From NCBI GenBank assembly GCA_016389475.1, contig GCA_016389475.1_3042.1: a stretch of DNA of 64,000 nucleotides; one strand, 5' to 3'. This document shows positions 4,938-54,874 of this stretch, one piece after another. Origin of the DNA: a phage. The notes below the pieces were generated by a model. The model ran no database searches. It was not told the DNA's origin and saw only the letters and a list, made by a program, of their open reading frames with translations. Positions within the stretch are counted from its first letter, which is position 1. Each line of letters starts with the position of its first letter. Position numbers and translations under genes: made by a program.

Positions 4938-5207
4938 TTAATTGAACAGTGGAGCGATGCGTTTCAGAAGAGTAGCAGCACCTTTAGCGAATTTTACATC
5001 ATGAAAAACAGTTTCTTCTTCCGTTACAACACGAGCTTTAATGTTTTCACAATCCCAATTTTTGCGAACAATCTTCAAAAGCTGCAGTAAATCTTTACAT
5101 TCAGCAATATCGATAACACATCCACGAGAATTTTCCATTATCGCACGATAACCGTAAGCCATACCATAATCGTTGAAAGATTGCTCGATGATAATTAAGT
5201 TTTCCAT
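4938..5207 (-). CDS. hypothetical protein (89 aa from ATG)
   Basis: ORF track (start given as TTG at 5219); ATG at 5207 preceded by GGAG RBS; first gene behind a promoter-like leader. Confidence 0.5.
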   Translation of the reverse strand: MENLIIIEQSFNDYGMAYGYRAIMENSRGCVIDIAECKDLLQLLKIVRKNWDCENIKARVVTEEETVFHDVKFAKGAATLLKRIAPLFN

Positions 5208-5304
5208 TTTATTCTCCAAGTTATTTTCTGTATCAGTAGTTGATATTGATATAGTACCATAATCAACTACTGATGTATATAGTTTTATGAAAAAATTTTA
5301 AACT

Positions 5305-13685: not shown

Positions 13686-14018
13686 TCAATCACAAGATGT
13701 AGATGAACAACTAGAATCACAAGAACTTCCGCATGAATCACTTGCCCATACGTGAACAGGAACATTTGTATCATATGAAGAATTAGAACTTTTAACTTCG
13801 TTAGAAGATGTAGGTACTGACCATCGCCAAGGATTTTTATAATATTCTTGGGCTTCTTCATAAGTCATAGTAACTGCTTCTACTGTTCCATCTCCCATAT
13901 AAACATACTCAACTACAGTTAAAGGAAGGTAGTCATTTGAAATAGGAACTACACCTTCCCCAGGAGTCGTAGAGAAAAAATCCGTAAAGAAACTTTTAAA
14001 CCAATTAAAGATAAACAC
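13686..14018 (-). CDS. hypothetical protein with Cys/Ser-rich C-terminal tail (110 aa)
   Basis: ORF track; C-terminus ...[20 protein letters not shown]. Confidence 0.5.
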
Positions 14019-14224
14019 TACAAAAAACCTCTCTTGAATTCAACTTGCTTCTCGCCATAATCATATCGAATCTCTGCATTAAATTCGACAGAACCATCTG
14101 CGTACATCATAAATGAATGCACAACAACTTCTGTGGACCATGGCTGCAGTTCATATTTCTTCATTACATGTCGTGAAATGATAATATCTAAATCTTCATT
14201 TGGTTTAATCCAACGATTTAACAT
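14018..14224 (-). CDS. hypothetical protein (68 aa)
   Basis: ORF track; first gene downstream of promoter 14251-14280. Confidence 0.5.
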   Translation of the reverse strand: MLNRWIKPNEDLDIIISRHVMKKYELQPWSTEVVVHSFMMYADGSVEFNAEIRYDYGEKQVEFKRGFL

Positions 14225-14250
14225 AGTGCTCTCCTCTATAAGATAATTTT

Positions 14251-14280
14251 ATTATACCATACTCATTTTGGAAAGTAAAC
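14251..14280 (-). promoter_or_regulatory. T4-type early promoter with consensus -10
   Basis: gtaaac 14275-14280, attata (TATAAT) 14251-14256, 18-nt spacer. Confidence 0.6.
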
Positions 14281-14296
14281 CGGTAAAATGAAAAAA

Positions 14297-14314
14297 GGAC
14301 TCCCTAGGGAGTCC
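14297..14314 (-). terminator. intrinsic terminator after soc
   Basis: ggactccc-tagg-gagtcc hairpin followed on minus RNA by UUUUUUCAUUUU. Confidence 0.6.
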
Positions 14315-14322
14315 TTGAATTA

Positions 14323-14559
14323 TTAACCACCTATTTCTGTAGGCGTAAACATTGCAGCATTCTTAGTTTTCCAAGTTGCTGCATCGGAAACTACATCAGA
14401 ATAAGCTGCTTTTTCTGACGGAAAGATTTGATAATGAGAATCTGCAATACGGTGTTCATTTGAATATACATCAAATGCTACAGAAACTTCCATACCTTTA
14501 ACTTCTTTGCCTTCACCTGCTGGATGAGTAAAGGTCTTGATGTTAACGAAACCACCCAT
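14323..14559 (-). CDS. soc: small outer capsid protein Soc
   Basis: ORF track 78 aa; VNIKTF...VSVAF...HYQIFPSEKAAYS matches T4 Soc; AAGGAG RBS. Confidence 0.85.
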   Translation of the reverse strand: MGGFVNIKTFTHPAGEGKEVKGMEVSVAFDVYSNEHRIADSHYQIFPSEKAAYSDVVSDAATWKTKNAAMFTPTEIGG

Positions 14560-14590
14560 AATAAACTCCTTTATTGTTTAATTACAGGTG

Positions 14591-14598
14591 TATTTATA
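14591..14598 (-). promoter_or_regulatory. T4 late promoter TATAAATA upstream of soc
   Basis: plus-strand tatttata = TATAAATA on minus strand, about 30 nt upstream of soc ATG. Confidence 0.55.
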
Positions 14599-14600
14599 AC

Positions 14601-14741
14601 TTACAATTTAGCGGCTTTCCAGAGTTGTTCAATAATCTCTTGGTCTATTTCTTTAGTTATTTCATTACGTAATAAAGCAGTAAGGGCTTTCGCCCTTTTC
14701 TTATTCAACTTTTTGAGTTGACGTTTATTTAAACGAGACAT
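14601..14741 (-). CDS. basic micro-ORF (46 aa), absent from ORF track
   Basis: Hand translation MSRLNKRQLKKLNKKRAKALTALLRNEITKEIDQEIIEQLWKAAKL; start overlaps gene 56 stop. Confidence 0.3.
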   Translation of the reverse strand: MSRLNKRQLKKLNKKRAKALTALLRNEITKEIDQEIIEQLWKAAKL

Positions 14742-15295: not shown

Positions 15296-15320
15296 ATTAT
15301 ACAATAAATATATAAAGCAA
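15296..15320 (-). promoter_or_regulatory. putative MotA-dependent middle promoter for gene 56
   Basis: minus strand reads TTGCTTTA (MotA box), 11-nt gap, TATAAT. Confidence 0.35.
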
Positions 15321-15332
15321 TAAGGAGGACAT

Positions 15333-15533
15333 ATGGTACAAAAATTAATGGCACTTGTTAATGCCATAAAAGGTAATAAAAAACGTATAGCTTTTACTAT
15401 TTCTGCTATGGTAGGAATTTTACTCTGGAACTTTATTCTATCACCTGTTGCAATTGCGCATGGTATTAATATTCCAGTAGTTACTCTTGATACATTTGTA
15501 GATTTAGCATTTGCTTTAGTTGGGTTAATTTAA
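15333..15533 (+). CDS. small hydrophobic protein (66 aa) on the opposite strand
   Basis: ORF track; AAGGAGG RBS 4 nt before ATG; two predicted TM segments; fills the gap between genes 56 and 61; stop overlaps gene 61 stop convergently. Confidence 0.35.
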   Translation: MVQKLMALVNAIKGNKKRIAFTISAMVGILLWNFILSPVAIAHGINIPVVTLDTFVDLAFALVGLI

Positions 15534-23630: not shown

Positions 23631-23867
23631 TCAAATGCAAGTAGTAATTACTCCAGTAGTGCTTATGCAGGTATTACTCATTTGCACACCTAAAGATCCA
23701 TTTGTATTCACATGAAGATTATCATCAATTTTAACTGATATTTTACCATTAGTGTGAATAACGGTGCTAGATTTAATCACAGGTTGAGTATCATTTTCAA
23801 CACTAACAAATGGAACTGCTACTAATGCAACTAAACAAACTGCTAAGCATCCCATAACAATTTTCAT
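23631..23867 (-). CDS. secreted small protein (78 aa from ATG)
   Basis: ORF track starts at upstream TTG; ATG at 23867 with GGAG RBS; cleavable signal peptide. Confidence 0.5.
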   Translation of the reverse strand: MKIVMGCLAVCLVALVAVPFVSVENDTQPVIKSSTVIHTNGKISVKIDDNLHVNTNGSLGVQMSNTCISTTGVITTCI

Positions 23868-23904
23868 TTTATTCTCCAAATCTGTATCAGTAGTTGATAG
23901 TTGT

Positions 23905-23934
23905 ATAGTACCACAGAAGAACAGTCTTGTAAAC
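23905..23934 (-). promoter_or_regulatory. T4-type early promoter
   Basis: gtaaac 23929-23934, atagta (TACTAT) 23905-23910. Confidence 0.55.
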
Positions 23935-24020
23935 AGTTTTGTGAAAATTTTTTAGGGAATTCTAAAGGTCCAGAATCATCTGTTTTTCATAAGTATAGAT
24001 TTATATTACTTGTATGAAAA

Positions 24021-26783: not shown

Positions 26784-26805
26784 CTTGATATATTATACTC
26801 CAAAT

Positions 26806-26823
26806 AAGGGGCCGAAGCCCCTT
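26806..26823 (-). terminator. C(UUCG)G tetraloop hairpin
   Basis: aaggggc-cgaa-gcccctt; on minus RNA GGGGC-UUCG-GCCCC followed by UUAUUUGG. Confidence 0.5.
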
Positions 26824-26825
26824 GC

Positions 26826-27047
26826 TTAAATTAGTACTATTTGCCGGGTGAAAATTGTCAATCCATCTGCATTAATTGACTTAACGACTGCAGTAAAATG
26901 TTTTTGTTCTGGGTGAACTAATTTTTGAAATTCTACCTGAAATTTTAATTGGAGGTTTTCTGGTAAATCAAAAAGTGTTTCTGTTGCAGAAAGATTATAT
27001 TTTTCTTTAAGAGACGCCATGTATTCTTGCGGAGTTATAGCAGTCAT
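26826..27047 (-). CDS. hypothetical protein (73 aa from ATG) between regA and gene 43
   Basis: ORF track starts at TTG 27059; ATG at 27047 abuts regA stop. Confidence 0.4.
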   Translation of the reverse strand: MTAITPQEYMASLKEKYNLSATETLFDLPENLQLKFQVEFQKLVHPEQKHFTAVVKSINADGLTIFTRQIVLI

Positions 27048-28943: not shown

Positions 28944-28977
28944 AATTTCCTCATTCAAGTTTTAGTGTAAATTATAA

Positions 28978-28991
28978 AGGGCCGAAGCCCT
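28978..28991 (-). terminator. C(UUCG)G tetraloop hairpin between genes 45 and 44
   Basis: agggc-cgaa-gccct. Confidence 0.4.
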
Positions 28992-28994
28992 CTA

Positions 28995-29681
28995 TTAAAA
29001 ATCGTGGGTAGAATCAGCTTCAAGAGCTACTACATAATTCGCGTGTTCACCTTCAAATTTAGCAGCACCTTGTTTACCTTTTGCCCAGAGCAGAAGTTTA
29101 TAATTTCCTGGTTGCATTTTCATATTTGCCATATTGATAATAAAATTAAATGTATTTTCACCATCATAATCACCAAGAGTCAAAGAATATTTAACACGGG
29201 TCAGAGCAGAATCTTCTACTTTATTAAAACCGTTAATTACGATTTTACCTTCTTTTACCGTGATAGCAATTGTATCAATTTGCAGACCACGAGATACACG
29301 CAACAGTTGTTGAAGGTCTTCAGCTTTAATTTCAGTAACAACAGATGCTACCGGGAATGGAATTGGTTTATTAGGAGCAACTACTGTACTCGGATCGGCT
29401 GCTGGCCAAAAAATTGTTGAACGGGCATCAGCAATTTTAATATTTCCATCTTCTGACTGGGAAATTTCTGCATCATCATTAACTAAAGACAGAATACCGA
29501 GAAAACCGTTCAAATCGTAAATTGCTACATCAAAATCAATAACGTCAGAAATATTTGCTTCCGCATAAGTTGTACCATTAACTGCGCGAGTCATAATAAA
29601 TTGACCAGATTTAAGCATAATGCCAGAGTTAATAGTAGCGAAATTTTTGAGCAGAGCAGTAGTATCTTTAGACAGTTTCAT
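28995..29681 (-). CDS. 45: sliding clamp
   Basis: ORF track 228 aa; MKLSKDTTALLKNFATINSGIMLKSGQFIMTRAV matches T4 gp45. Confidence 0.95.
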   Translation of the reverse strand: MKLSKDTTALLKNFATINSGIMLKSGQFIMTRAVNGTTYAEANISDVIDFDVAIYDLNGFLGILSLVNDDAEISQSEDGNIKIADARSTIFWPAADPSTVVAPNKPIPFPVASVVTEIKAEDLQQLLRVSRGLQIDTIAITVKEGKIVINGFNKVEDSALTRVKYSLTLGDYDGENTFNFIINMANMKMQPGNYKLLLWAKGKQGAAKFEGEHANYVVALEADSTHDF

Positions 29682-37286: not shown

Positions 37287-37326
37287 ACATTATCCTCAAT
37301 TGCGTTAAAATTTTATTATCCAAAAA

Positions 37327-37342
37327 AAGGGCCGAAGCCCTT
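37327..37342 (-). terminator. intrinsic terminator with C(UUCG)G tetraloop
   Basis: aagggc-cgaa-gccctt followed on minus RNA by UUUUUUUGG. Confidence 0.6.
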
Positions 37343-37541
37343 AGCTAAACTGTTTGGCACCCTTCCAGCCTTCGTACATCATTGCGACTGACAATGACAA
37401 AGCTCCTTCGCATGCTGCATACTTATTATTCCAGAACCAATTTAGAAAAACTTCATCCTCAATACCATTGTGTTTCATGTTCTGGAAAAATTTGGCGCGT
37501 TCTTCACGAAGCTTTTGCGATAACATAGATTCAGGATTCAT
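37341..37541 (-). CDS. hypothetical protein (66 aa)
   Basis: ORF track. Confidence 0.45.
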   Translation of the reverse strand: MNPESMLSQKLREERAKFFQNMKHNGIEDEVFLNWFWNNKYAACEGALSLSVAMMYEGWKGAKQFS

Positions 37542-46403: not shown

Positions 46404-46433
46404 ATTATACCACATCCTTGTGGCAAAGTAAAC
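46404..46433 (-). promoter_or_regulatory. T4-type early promoter, near-duplicate of 1546-1575
   Basis: attataccacatccttgtgg-c-aaagtaaac, one mismatch versus the rIIA.1 promoter. Confidence 0.6.
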
Positions 46434-47452
46434 TAGTTCAGTGCATTTAATGCACTGTTCAGTTTAGAACGTTGCTTTGTCAGATTTTGAACCCTTGACT
46501 GAGCTTGTTCTAACGCCTTTTCAGCTTCTAGCACTTCATTGGTCGCTTTAACGAGTTCATCATCTACTGCCTTGATAGACTTCTCAATCGCATCCGCGTG
46601 CCATTTTTCAACAGGTTTAAGACTCGGATTTTCAACAGGAAGAAAATTCACTTTATTGAATTTCCATGCATCATTATTACCTGAACTATACATCCAAAAT
46701 TTAGGATCGTTTGATAAGTAATTGGATAAATTTAAGTTATCTTGTACTTCCTGCTTTTTCTCTTGCGGGACTTCGTCCTTTCTCAAAAAATCGTATTTAA
46801 ATGAAACGATCATATCAAGTTCATATGATGTTGTATCTAACTTAAATCGTTCAAAACGAGGTAAAATCTTAGACTGAACAGCGGCAACAACATCCATATA
46901 CTTAAATGCTTCTGTCAACTGTGATTTAAGGCATTCACAAATTGAAAGAGAATTTTTTGTATTAGGTTTAAAGCTAATTCGTGCAGTTCTATTATTTTCT
47001 TTTAATGGTCTTACTTCCATCTGAAGAGTATAACCATCAAATTTCAGGTTCTTTAAGTTATTGTCAGAACCTTTTAATCGACTAGCTGTCGACAAAATTT
47101 GCTTTAACTGTTTACGGAATAGAGCAATAAATCTCCATTCAATACGATAATGATTGGGATTGAAAAATCCAGATGATAAATCAACCTTACTCTGACCAAC
47201 ACCTTGAACAAATAGAGGATTTTTATAATCAATAGTTTTACAGAAATCGGTGAGCTGCTCACGAGCAGTCATTTGTGTAATATATCCCGCTTTACTAAAA
47301 TGACGTAACCATTCACTGCTATTCATATACTTAAAGTGAATGGAACTATTAACTCTATCAGGGTCTAAATTATTTTGGCACAAAAATGTCATAACATCAC
47401 GAGTATAGCTGGCATTACGAACCATATCTTCAATTTGAGAACGAGTTTTCAT
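46433..47452 (-). CDS. coiled-coil-tailed protein, paralog family member 3 (339 aa)
   Basis: ORF track; N-terminus MKTRSQIEDMV; C-terminal coiled coil. Confidence 0.6.
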   Translation of the reverse strand: MKTRSQIEDMVRNASYTRDVMTFLCQNNLDPDRVNSSIHFKYMNSSEWLRHFSKAGYITQMTAREQLTDFCKTIDYKNPLFVQGVGQSKVDLSSGFFNPNHYRIEWRFIALFRKQLKQILSTASRLKGSDNNLKNLKFDGYTLQMEVRPLKENNRTARISFKPNTKNSLSICECLKSQLTEAFKYMDVVAAVQSKILPRFERFKLDTTSYELDMIVSFKYDFLRKDEVPQEKKQEVQDNLNLSNYLSNDPKFWMYSSGNNDAWKFNKVNFLPVENPSLKPVEKWHADAIEKSIKAVDDELVKATNEVLEAEKALEQAQSRVQNLTKQRSKLNSALNALN

Positions 47453-49830: not shown

Positions 49831-50799
49831 TTATTTCAGTAAAGTAACTTCCGAGATTTCTTCCCAACCATCTTTATCAGTTGAAATAAAATCTGCTACA
49901 TAAAGAGCCGTACGTAATGATACATTGCGAAGACGAGATACGTTAGCCTTCATCCAGGACAATGCTTTATACGTTTCTGCATCCGTCAGACCACGTTTCT
50001 GCATCATGTCAGTAGATAATATTACATCTTCAACTCGAACCATAATCTCTTCATTAGAGTGTACTCCAAGGTCGAGATACACTGAACGAGATACTAAAGC
50101 TTGAAGGTGTGGAGCAAGTTTCGAACCCCGTTCTAACTCTTTATCGATATCAACGTTTGTAATGAAAACGATAGTACCTTCAAACTCAAATTCTTTATCA
50201 ATACCCTTATCCTCGAGATAAGATGACGCAGTGCTCCAACAAACTTTGCGTTTATCTCCGGTATCTAATGCTGCTTTAAGAAGGTTCAGGATGTCCATAT
50301 CTGAGAATACGTCAACGTCATCGATTAAGAGAACGCTGTCTTCATCACGGTTGAGCCAAAGTTGTTCGTAAAGGCCAATACCAGAGATTTTACCATTAAT
50401 GCTTTTGTATTTGATGAAACCGTTATCATTAGCATTATTAAGTGCTTTATCCAGAGAATACGTTTTACCAATACCTGCTGCTCCCGAGATAATTAATGAA
50501 CGAATGTTTCCGTTAATAATACCATTCGTCATCATTCCCATAACATTAAATCTTTTATTAATGCGGGTTTTCATATCTTCATACGATTCTTTAACTTCTT
50601 CAACTTTTACACCATCATATGAAATGTCTGATTTGTAAACCCAAACACCGCGACGCTTACCGTCAATTTCAACAAAAACTTTACCATCTCCTTGTGCATC
50701 TACCGGAGCATTATCTGGGAACCATTCACCTAAGAGCTCAAAAGTTCCAGAGATTTCTTTACCGAAGTAGATACCCTTATTGATAGTTACAGTTTTCAT
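49831..50799 (-). CDS. P-loop ATPase (322 aa from ATG)
   Basis: ORF track; Walker A GAAGIGKT and Walker B LLIDDVD; ATG at 50799. Confidence 0.65.
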   Translation of the reverse strand: MKTVTINKGIYFGKEISGTFELLGEWFPDNAPVDAQGDGKVFVEIDGKRRGVWVYKSDISYDGVKVEEVKESYEDMKTRINKRFNVMGMMTNGIINGNIRSLIISGAAGIGKTYSLDKALNNANDNGFIKYKSINGKISGIGLYEQLWLNRDEDSVLLIDDVDVFSDMDILNLLKAALDTGDKRKVCWSTASSYLEDKGIDKEFEFEGTIVFITNVDIDKELERGSKLAPHLQALVSRSVYLDLGVHSNEEIMVRVEDVILSTDMMQKRGLTDAETYKALSWMKANVSRLRNVSLRTALYVADFISTDKDGWEEISEVTLLK

Positions 50800-50833
50800 T
50801 TTATTCTCCAAATCCGTATCAGTTGATAGTTGT

Positions 50834-50863
50834 ATAGTACCATAAAGCTTTATGCTTGTAAAC
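50834..50863 (-). promoter_or_regulatory. T4-type early promoter
   Basis: gtaaac 50858-50863, atagta (TACTAT) 50834-50839. Confidence 0.55.
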
Positions 50864-50893
50864 CGTTTTGTGAAAAATTTTTGAAATAAAAAA

Positions 50894-54000: not shown

Positions 54001-54240
54001 TTACACTCTCGTATTATGATCGATAATTTCATCAAGAAACATATCTAACGCTTCTATAGCATTATCCACTTTAGTTTCAAAGTCTTTAATGCCTTTATTC
54101 GAAATACCCGATGAATACCAAGCAAAGTCAATCAGCTCTTCATCTGCTTTACGAATTGAAGCCACTAATTCCTTGATTTTATCTGCTTGCTCTATACTAA
54201 TCATTATTCCACCACATATGACAGAGAGAATATTGCGCAC
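54001..54240 (-). CDS. hypothetical protein (79 aa)
   Basis: ORF track. Confidence 0.45.
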
Positions 54241-54392
54241 GCCATGTGAGTTGCAACTTCATCACACATATTATAACGTTTCTTAAGAAGTTCTACAAGT
54301 TCTTCACTAGTAACTTCATCCATGTCGACGAAAAAATCACCATTAATGATGACGTAGATATTTCCTTCTTGATTGAGTGCTTCAATTTTCAT
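54204..54392 (-). CDS. hypothetical protein (62 aa from ATG)
   Basis: ORF track start 54437 lies inside the promoter; ATG at 54392 has GGAGGAG RBS. Confidence 0.45.
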
Positions 54393-54420
54393 GATATTCT
54401 CCTCTTTATCTGATAGTTGT

Positions 54421-54450
54421 ATAGTATCACAGCTCAAACGGAAAGTAAAC
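54421..54450 (-). promoter_or_regulatory. T4-type early promoter
   Basis: gtaaac 54445-54450, atagta (TACTAT) 54421-54426. Confidence 0.55.
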
Positions 54451-54465
54451 CGGTAAAATGAAAAA

Positions 54466-54483
54466 AGTCTCCCGAAGGAGACT
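54466..54483 (-). terminator. intrinsic terminator with C(UUCG)G tetraloop
   Basis: agtctcc-cgaa-ggagact followed on minus RNA by UUUUUUCAUUUU. Confidence 0.65.
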
Positions 54484-54487
54484 AATG

Positions 54488-54874
54488 TTATTCGAGGGAA
54501 AGAAGATACTTACTCTGGTAAAACATTCCAGTAATATCATCTATCGTGCTTTGAATGGCTGGAGGCATTTCTTTATAAATGCTGTTAGATTGGTCTAGTA
54601 TGCGATCAATCATTTTAATTGTGTCGGTAGGAAGTTTACTGGCATCTGGAATTGAAGGCGTGTATTTTCTACCAGAATACCCCAAATATTGCTCACCAAA
54701 TTTATCAATCAAATCTGGCAACTCGGAGAAAATAAAATCGTATGCTTTGTGTCTAGCATAACTTTTAGTTTCAAAATGTGCAGAATGAAAATAAGCTTGT
54801 GCAGCCATTAATAAACCTAAGTATTCATCTGCCTTTGAAGGTTTTCCACTTTGTGAAAAGTCGCTGAATTTCAT
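54488..54874 (-). CDS. hypothetical protein (128 aa), rI.-1 position
   Basis: ORF track. Confidence 0.5.

Follow-up and report, generated by a model that had tools for sequence, protein, structure and literature searches.

A 28-nt string, GGAAAGTAAACCGGTAAAATGAAAAAAG on the plus strand and CTTTTTTCATTTTACCGGTTTACTTTCC on the coding (minus) strand, occurs twice without a mismatch in the 64,000-nt stretch of phage DNA analysed here (hereafter the window). This raises the questions of what the string belongs to, whether it marks a place of genetic exchange, and how two such distant copies came to be identical. The window represents a Tequatrovirus (T4-like) genome, and comparison with the annotated Sf23, T4 and T4T places the first copy (A) between soc and mrh.2 and the second (B) between rI.-1 and mobD.5, the genes at both loci lying on the minus strand. 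At locus A the surroundings share 99.7% identity with phage EO1 and 99.4% with Shigella phage Sf23, at locus B 99.5% with Sa45lw. The genome is a fine-scale mosaic, EO1 being closest at locus A and only 97.9% identical at locus B, and Sa45lw reaching 97.5% at the former and 99.5% at the latter.

The window holds exactly two copies (14270-14297 and 54440-54467), as the initial annotation had seen, although it placed both one base too low. It had also suggested a genome-wide search for the 28-mer, which, run within the 64-kb window, returned the two exact copies and no third, degenerate one at up to 8 mismatches. In 100 dinucleotide-preserving shuffles no match arose, even at a tolerance of 3 mismatches. 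The shuffles and the fuzzy search refute chance or convergence on promoter and terminator consensus sequences, whose probability is practically negligible: GTTTAC, T-runs and T-rich bases past the -35 are indeed common to many promoters of the window, but the other 19 of its 21 minus-strand GTTTAC-N17-19-(-10) promoters all lack the ACCG linker and the T-tract, and neither the linker ACCG nor CATTTT corresponds to a known consensus requirement. The identity between A and B ends abruptly at both edges, and the whole intergenic spacers are only partly alike, sharing the TGn, the -10 frame, ATC and AGAGGAGA. No similarity was found between the proteins flanking A and those flanking B, so that only the cassette is common to the two loci; a segmental duplication as their origin was rejected because the flanking genes are not paralogous.

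Anatomy of the two cassettes

Each copy of the 28-mer is, by its sequence context, the middle of a predicted intergenic terminator and early-promoter module of about 95 nt on the minus strand (Table 1). Both modules follow the order hairpin, U6CAU4, 4-nt linker, GTTTAC, 18-nt spacer with TGn, -10 hexamer, GAGGAG and ATG, with 6 or 7 nt between the last two, and share the run TTTTTTCATTTT-ACCG-GTTTAC-TTTCC. The 28-mer begins in both at the last base of the hairpin stem and takes in the U-tract and the -35 hexamer. As RNA, hairpin A (AAGGACUCC-CUAG-GGAGUCCUU) folds at -15.1 kcal/mol (z -4.1) and hairpin B (AGUCUCC-UUCG-GGAGACU) at -10.8 kcal/mol (z -5.0), and in neither case did any shuffle fold as well. 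Consensus scans called both sites terminators and A also a promoter, scoring 10/12 with TGn. Independent annotations give "terminator" and "predicted early promoter" at locus A of Yersinia phage fPS-2, and "terminator" in PhAPEC2 and Melville.

The composite terminator and early-promoter reading proposed initially for both sites is thus supported by the hairpins, the U-tracts and the GTTTAC-N18-(-10) arrangement, and the two hairpins are, as had been said, unlike in sequence and alike in structure, with different stems, 4-nt loops and the same U-tract. The -35 hexamer does not overlap the U-tract, as had been thought, but starts 4 nt downstream of it (TTTTTTCATTTT-ACCG-GTTTAC).

Table 1. Coordinates of the features of cassettes A and B in the window, with the neighbouring genes.
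Feature	Coordinates	Strand	Remarks
Cassette A terminator hairpin, AAGGACTCC-CTAG-GGAGTCCTT, 9-bp stem, 4-nt loop	14295..14316	-	6 nt past soc stop codon (14323-14325)
Cassette A U-tract, TTTTTTCATTTT	14285..14296	-	Also A/T-rich zone -52 to -41 of the promoter; candidate UP element
28-nt repeat, copy A, CTTTTTTCATTTTACCGGTTTACTTTCC	14270..14297	-	
Cassette A -35 hexamer, GTTTAC (T4 early consensus)	14275..14280	-	
Cassette A extended -10, TGG + TATAAT, 18 nt past GTTTAC	14251..14259	-	TATAAT = 14256-14251
Cassette A Shine-Dalgarno GAGGAG (14231-14236) and mrh.2 ATG (14222-14224)	14222..14236	-	
soc (small outer capsid protein), Mosigvirus/RB69-type allele, upstream of cassette A	14323..14559	-	
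mrh.2, first gene past the predicted cassette A promoter	14018..14224	-	
Cassette B terminator hairpin, AGTCTCC-TTCG-GGAGACT, 7-bp stem, UUCG loop	54466..54483	-	4 nt past rI.-1 stop codon (54488-54490)
Cassette B U-tract, TTTTTTCATTTT	54455..54466	-	
28-nt repeat, copy B	54440..54467	-	
Cassette B -35 hexamer, GTTTAC	54445..54450	-	
Cassette B extended -10, TGA + TACTAT (fits PST/T4 PeSL consensus TAYWAT)	54421..54429	-	TACTAT = 54426-54421
Cassette B Shine-Dalgarno GAGGAG (54399-54404) and mobD.5 ATG (54390-54392)	54390..54404	-	
mobD.5 ORF, downstream of cassette B	54204..54392	-	
rI.-1 (MobD.6/DUF5856), upstream of cassette B	54488..54874	-	

In the mechanism that we propose, the hairpin with its U6CAU4 tract would end transcripts of the gene before it, soc at cassette A and rI/rI.-1 at cassette B, and 14 bases past the stem a T4 early promoter would restart transcription by host sigma-70 polymerase into small early genes, from mrh.2 onwards at A and from mobD.5 onwards at B. 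The terminator T-tract would occupy the place of an A/T-rich UP element (-52 to -41) and could act as one, with the T-run at -52 to -47 as a possible distal subsite. Most T4 early promoters are A-rich at -40 to -44 (Nolan et al., 2006); in both copies -44 to -40 reads TTTTA, which is A/T-rich, but through T rather than A.

For transcripts reading through at A, the fold predicts a pairing between CUUUCC, just past the -35, and the Shine-Dalgarno sequence GGAGAG of mrh.2 (14225-14280), which, if real, might silence mrh.2 translation on RNA escaping the terminator. We did not make this pairing part of the module: natural ATATC alleles lack it, and at B it falls short of significance (z -0.86).

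The window contains at least four terminator and promoter composites (A, B, 50912/50863 and 39676/39636) and at least 60 direct-repeat families, nearly all of them promoter or 5'UTR modules. Different repeat pairs have different sub-segments in common; the -10 and first transcribed bases of B, TACTATACAACTATCA, recur at 23934 and 50863. A 30-nt promoter repeat mentioned in the initial annotation is probably GTTTACTTT(A/G)CCACAAGGATGTGGTATAAT, identical over 31 of 32 nt at two loci (1546-1577 and 46404-46435; family D4) that lie 45 kb apart and carry minus-strand promoters at 1575 and 46433. A repeat of about 95 nt (23857-23954 and 50789-50883) extends from UP zone, GTTTAC and TACTAT through 5'UTR and Shine-Dalgarno sequence into the first codons (ATGAAAA) of two different genes, and a third, more diverged copy at 5197-5300 lacks GTTTAC (families D1, D3, D9). 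The near-identical terminator-like hairpin AAGGGGCCGAAGCCCCTT occurs, with variants, in three copies (26804-26835, 28974-29005 and 37324-37355; families D13, D18), one of them bordering a 219-nt indel that separates the window from Tequatrovirus BCH953P4.

Allele exchange and breakpoints at the two loci

With a 39-nt query centred on copy A, 543 phage records, T4 among them, gave 989 matches, as a rule two in each genome. The T4 B copy has the 28-mer with one extra T, and its A copy differs in the linker, with TTTAAATGG instead of TTTTACCGG; about half of the Tequatrovirus genomes, among them T4, carry another linker at A. A viral contig collection with about six Tequatrovirus contigs, too small a number for population statistics, was searched with the exact 28-mer and for Mrh.2 and RI.-1 relatives; it had the exact 28-mer in no context other than A and B. 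Hallmarks of a mobile element were absent at A and B, where there are no terminal repeats and where the 543 records show two fixed positions per genome.

Sliding identity changes sharply at cassette A. Against T4, the window stays at or above 90% through mrh.1, mrh.2 and the cassette and is only about 50-60% identical once the soc stop codon is reached; against Mosigvirus PhAPEC2 the pattern is reversed, with unrelated mrh genes, 83% identity in the hairpin and about 90% in soc. These opposite switches indicate that in the window a soc of the Mosigvirus/RB69 type is attached to a T4-like backbone at the cassette. Blast end-points over all records likewise cluster at cassette A (326-423 of the query), falling into the classes 1-430, 299-704 and 385/394-70x. 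The window soc is about 55% identical to that of T4, and both soc types circulate in Tequatrovirus.

Among 12 genomes, all four combinations of soc type (R or T4) and linker (ACCG versus AAATG, AAACG or GCA) were observed, as were all four combinations of linker and mrh.2 type (at least 95% versus about 62%), the alleles of both soc and mrh.2 being about 60% identical to one another. The hairpin (GGACTCC or GGAATCC) and the pentamer past the -35 (TTTCC or ATATC) reassort as well. The four-gamete condition is therefore met twice, and together with the reassortment of sub-segments this gives at least four distinct junction positions within the roughly 95 nt of cassette A, which, on these allele combinations, is a proven recombination junction. 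In the proposed mechanism, homologous recombination between co-infecting phages would resolve inside cassettes because these are short conserved islands between divergent genes, and at A repeated exchange would have reassorted soc alleles, cassette sub-segments and mrh.2 alleles. Cassette A thus offers a clean example, at base level, of soc alleles, hairpin, linker, post -35 bases and mrh.2 alleles reassorting within a spacer of about 95 nt.

The mosaicism at A could also stem from co-conversion by a homing endonuclease together with general recombination, the cassettes being ordinary signals and cassette A merely the nearest conserved sequence, an account which is possible, if somewhat doubtful. 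T4 segF, between soc and gene 56, cuts gene 56 and leads to co-conversion of flanking DNA (Edgell et al., 2010), an HNH gene occupies the place of segF in fPS-2 and ACG-C40, the 56|soc junction is itself hypervariable, and cassette-bearing junctions are not hit more often than others (see below). Against it, the four or more junctions lie inside the cassette, among them junctions at the start codon of mrh.2, a long way from where the endonuclease cuts, and alleles reassort on either side of the cassette; the account moreover concerns the cause of exchange, not the identity of the element. A homing-endonuclease site next to soc (segF in T4, HNH in fPS-2) is plausibly an additional driver of exchange at A, within the reading of the cassette as a recombination junction.

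In the window, the 56|soc junction (14560-14741) lacks segF and holds a 46-aa ORF (14601-14741) that contains the bidirectional hairpin AAGGGCGAAAGCCCTT (14682-14697); in relatives the place is empty or taken by segF, an HNH gene or other small ORFs. Between genes 56 and 61 lies a lone plus-strand ORF (15333-15533; 66 aa), a predicted membrane protein in Sf23, which adjoins the site of an insertion of about 1.45 kb in BCH953P4 (window 15301-15322).

Locus B is more stable. Within Tequatrovirus, the segment from mobD.4 to rI.-1 is preserved in one piece at 93-99.8% identity in 499 of 821 matching records, and cassette B is nearly invariant, with no allele or gene-content break. An insertion of about 430 nt of the PST/T6 type was considered as a break at this cassette and rejected, as it sits between MobD.1-2 and MobD.2. 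A break does appear between genera: Dhakavirus VR5 keeps rI.-1, a homologous cassette and mobD.3, and an unrelated gene replaces mobD.5/mobD.4 directly past the cassette. A terminator followed by a GTTTAC promoter stands past rI.-1 in five genera, with unrelated hairpin sequences, which indicates an old and fixed position. The suggestion that the modules are portable is therefore not borne out: their positions are fixed, with two copies per genome, and that of B is shared by five genera.

Whether cassettes in general attract breakpoints was assessed in a single rough pairwise alignment of the whole 64-kb window with BCH953P4. Of its 21 gaps, six began or ended within a promoter cassette, where random placement would give 1.5 (P ~0.003). 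When gene junctions were taken as the reference, indel edges fell at 4 of 18 cassette-bearing junctions and at 21 of 107 others (P = 0.51). In this one comparison, cassettes were thus no more prone to breakage than any gene boundary; they may simply be gene boundaries, and "hotspot" may mean no more than a conserved gene boundary. The initial idea that the repeats are recombination hotspots, tied as it was to gene-content breakpoints in related genomes, holds at A, which lies at an allele breakpoint, and at B only for the between-genus break; as a general excess at cassettes it found no support in this comparison.

Origin of the 28-nt identity

The relationships of the Tequatrovirus B copy were compared over 21 positions, 16 nt upstream and 5 nt downstream of the -35. 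It matches the Tequatrovirus A copy (window allele) at 21 of 21 positions and the Dhakavirus A copy at 18 of 21, whereas its agreement with the orthologous B copies in Dhakavirus, Gelderlandvirus, Karamvirus and a Klebsiella phage is limited to 10-13 of 21, a comparison made with few outgroups. The Dhakavirus A copies (VR5, JS98) are A-type, and GTTTAC-ATCC(T/C) is common to three of the four non-Tequatrovirus B orthologues. The B-specific -10 TACTAT is found in four genera including Tequatrovirus, the A copies having TATAAT or TAAGAT. Downstream of the 28-mer, with the -10 as anchor, Tequatrovirus B is equally distant (17-18 of 28) from A copies and from B orthologues; the view that it is B-type there was rejected, the locus-specific signal residing only in TACTAT and the hairpin.

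On this evidence the 28-nt identity looks like a short ectopic gene-conversion patch from A to B rather than independent conservation. An A-type patch would have been copied into B and fixed in the Tequatrovirus ancestor, and A would have diversified later. The sharp ends of the repeat would then correspond to the edges of the conversion tract, and the event would add a modest new detail on how distant regulatory repeats stay homogeneous. More tentatively, and somewhat short of probable, the two loci may evolve together, with ectopic short-patch conversion over 40 kb renewing homology tracts for modular exchange; in the one contig with a variant B copy (L027), no matching change was seen in its A copy (L020).

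Selection could instead have kept the 28 nt from an old duplication of the cassette, with no later exchange between A and B. The near-invariance of B in hundreds of genomes and the presence of a terminator-promoter module at both loci in several genera would agree with such retention, which is nevertheless rather unlikely, as the four non-Tequatrovirus B orthologues lack the sequence and Dhakavirus A has it. In addition, A is polymorphic within Tequatrovirus in its linker (ACCG, AAATG, AAACG or GCA) and past the -35 (TTTCC or ATATC), which makes a strict constraint on the bases of the 28-mer improbable.

The exact identity with its sharp edges might also be taken for the binding site of a sequence-specific regulator that controls the two loci together, since A follows soc and B follows rI, which we take to be late-expressed genes (soc in part also after Edgell et al.). 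The different linker at A in T4 and about half of its genus speaks against this, and the 28-mer has neither a palindrome nor operator-like symmetry. To our knowledge no factor binds it, and co-regulation through such a site appears very improbable. A-to-B conversion remains our preferred reading of the identity.

Relation to PeSLs and other known elements

Both copies are very probably promoter-early stem-loop (PeSL) cassettes, an already published kind of element; this confidence extends to the explanation as a whole, comprising the module anatomy, the PeSL class, the exchange at the A junction and, as an inference, the conversion from A to B. The first PeSLs to be described came from RB49/phi1, and those of the pairs T4/PST and KVP40/nt-1 followed (Arbiol et al., 2010, PMC2839356; Comeau et al., 2014, PMC4122927). 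Their T4/PST consensus is TTTACW-N17-TAYWAT, with a stem-loop just upstream and a Shine-Dalgarno sequence and ATG at the 3' end; promoter and terminator activity, and mini-circles between neighbouring copies, have been demonstrated for the RB49/phi1 PeSLs only (PMC2839356; PMC4122927). The discovery value of the present sites is accordingly small: T4 has both of them, and terminator and early-promoter cassettes in T4-type phages, with their link to modular shuffling, have been in print since 2010 and 2014.

The promoters read TTTACT-N17-TATAAT at A and TTTACT-N17-TACTAT at B, and the predicted hairpins end 14 nt before the -35 and are followed by U6CAU4. Both spacers have the layout TAA-(4-6 nt)-hairpin-T-tract ... 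GAGGAG-N6/7-ATG. As to membership in a repeated family, A belongs to the direct-repeat families D2 and D4 and the -10 region of B to D10. As to changes that distinguish relatives, soc and mrh.2 allele mosaics adjoin A, B adjoins such changes only between genera, and the one pairwise comparison gave no enrichment over other gene junctions. Like known PeSLs, the cassettes thus combine a stem-loop terminator with a sigma-70-type early promoter, an A/T-rich upstream zone and a Shine-Dalgarno sequence and ATG at the end, occur in many copies per genome and adjoin small genes of unknown function, and locus A coincides with allele and gene exchanges. They differ in that cassette B shows no exchange within its genus and in that essential genes lie in the 40 kb separating A from B, so that mini-circle excision as between neighbouring PeSLs does not apply and only non-crossover conversion would be viable.

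In Shigella phage SP18 (Gaprivervirus; L035 292-367) and Klebsiella phage kv_tblp5 (L015 959-1037), the soc|mrh.2 hairpin is kept without GTTTAC, and the T-tract runs into the MotA-box-like TTTGCTTTTA, followed 10-12 nt on by TATAAT or TAGAAT. This arrangement would be a composite of terminator and middle promoter, like the published "PmSL".

With regard to T4 early promoters, the -35 consensus is GTTTAC at -36 to -31 (Nolan et al., 2006) and the class is described as UP/-35/TGn/-10 promoters (Hinton, 2010). Both copies have GTTTAC in this position, the TGn and a -10 with A at -11 and T at -7; the spacing of GTTTAC to the extended -10 is the same, and TATAAT and TACTAT also serve the other early promoters of the window. 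The difference lies upstream of the -35, where A and B carry the terminator T-tract and most others in the window an A-rich run such as AAAAAGTT.

No Rfam family matched in the window. T4 terminators consist of a GC stem, a 4-nt loop and poly-U (Edgell et al., 2010). Both predicted hairpins resemble these and E. coli intrinsic terminators in their GC-rich stem, short loop (4 nt, UUCG at B and in most A alleles) and a U-run directly past the stem, but their U-tract is interrupted (U6CAU4) and runs straight into a promoter. Finally, the cassettes recall the module junctions or "moron" boundaries proposed for lambdoid phages, a scheme from which T4-like phages have been distinguished (Nolan et al., 2006), but in which a short conserved regulatory sequence between exchangeable genes likewise serves homologous exchange.
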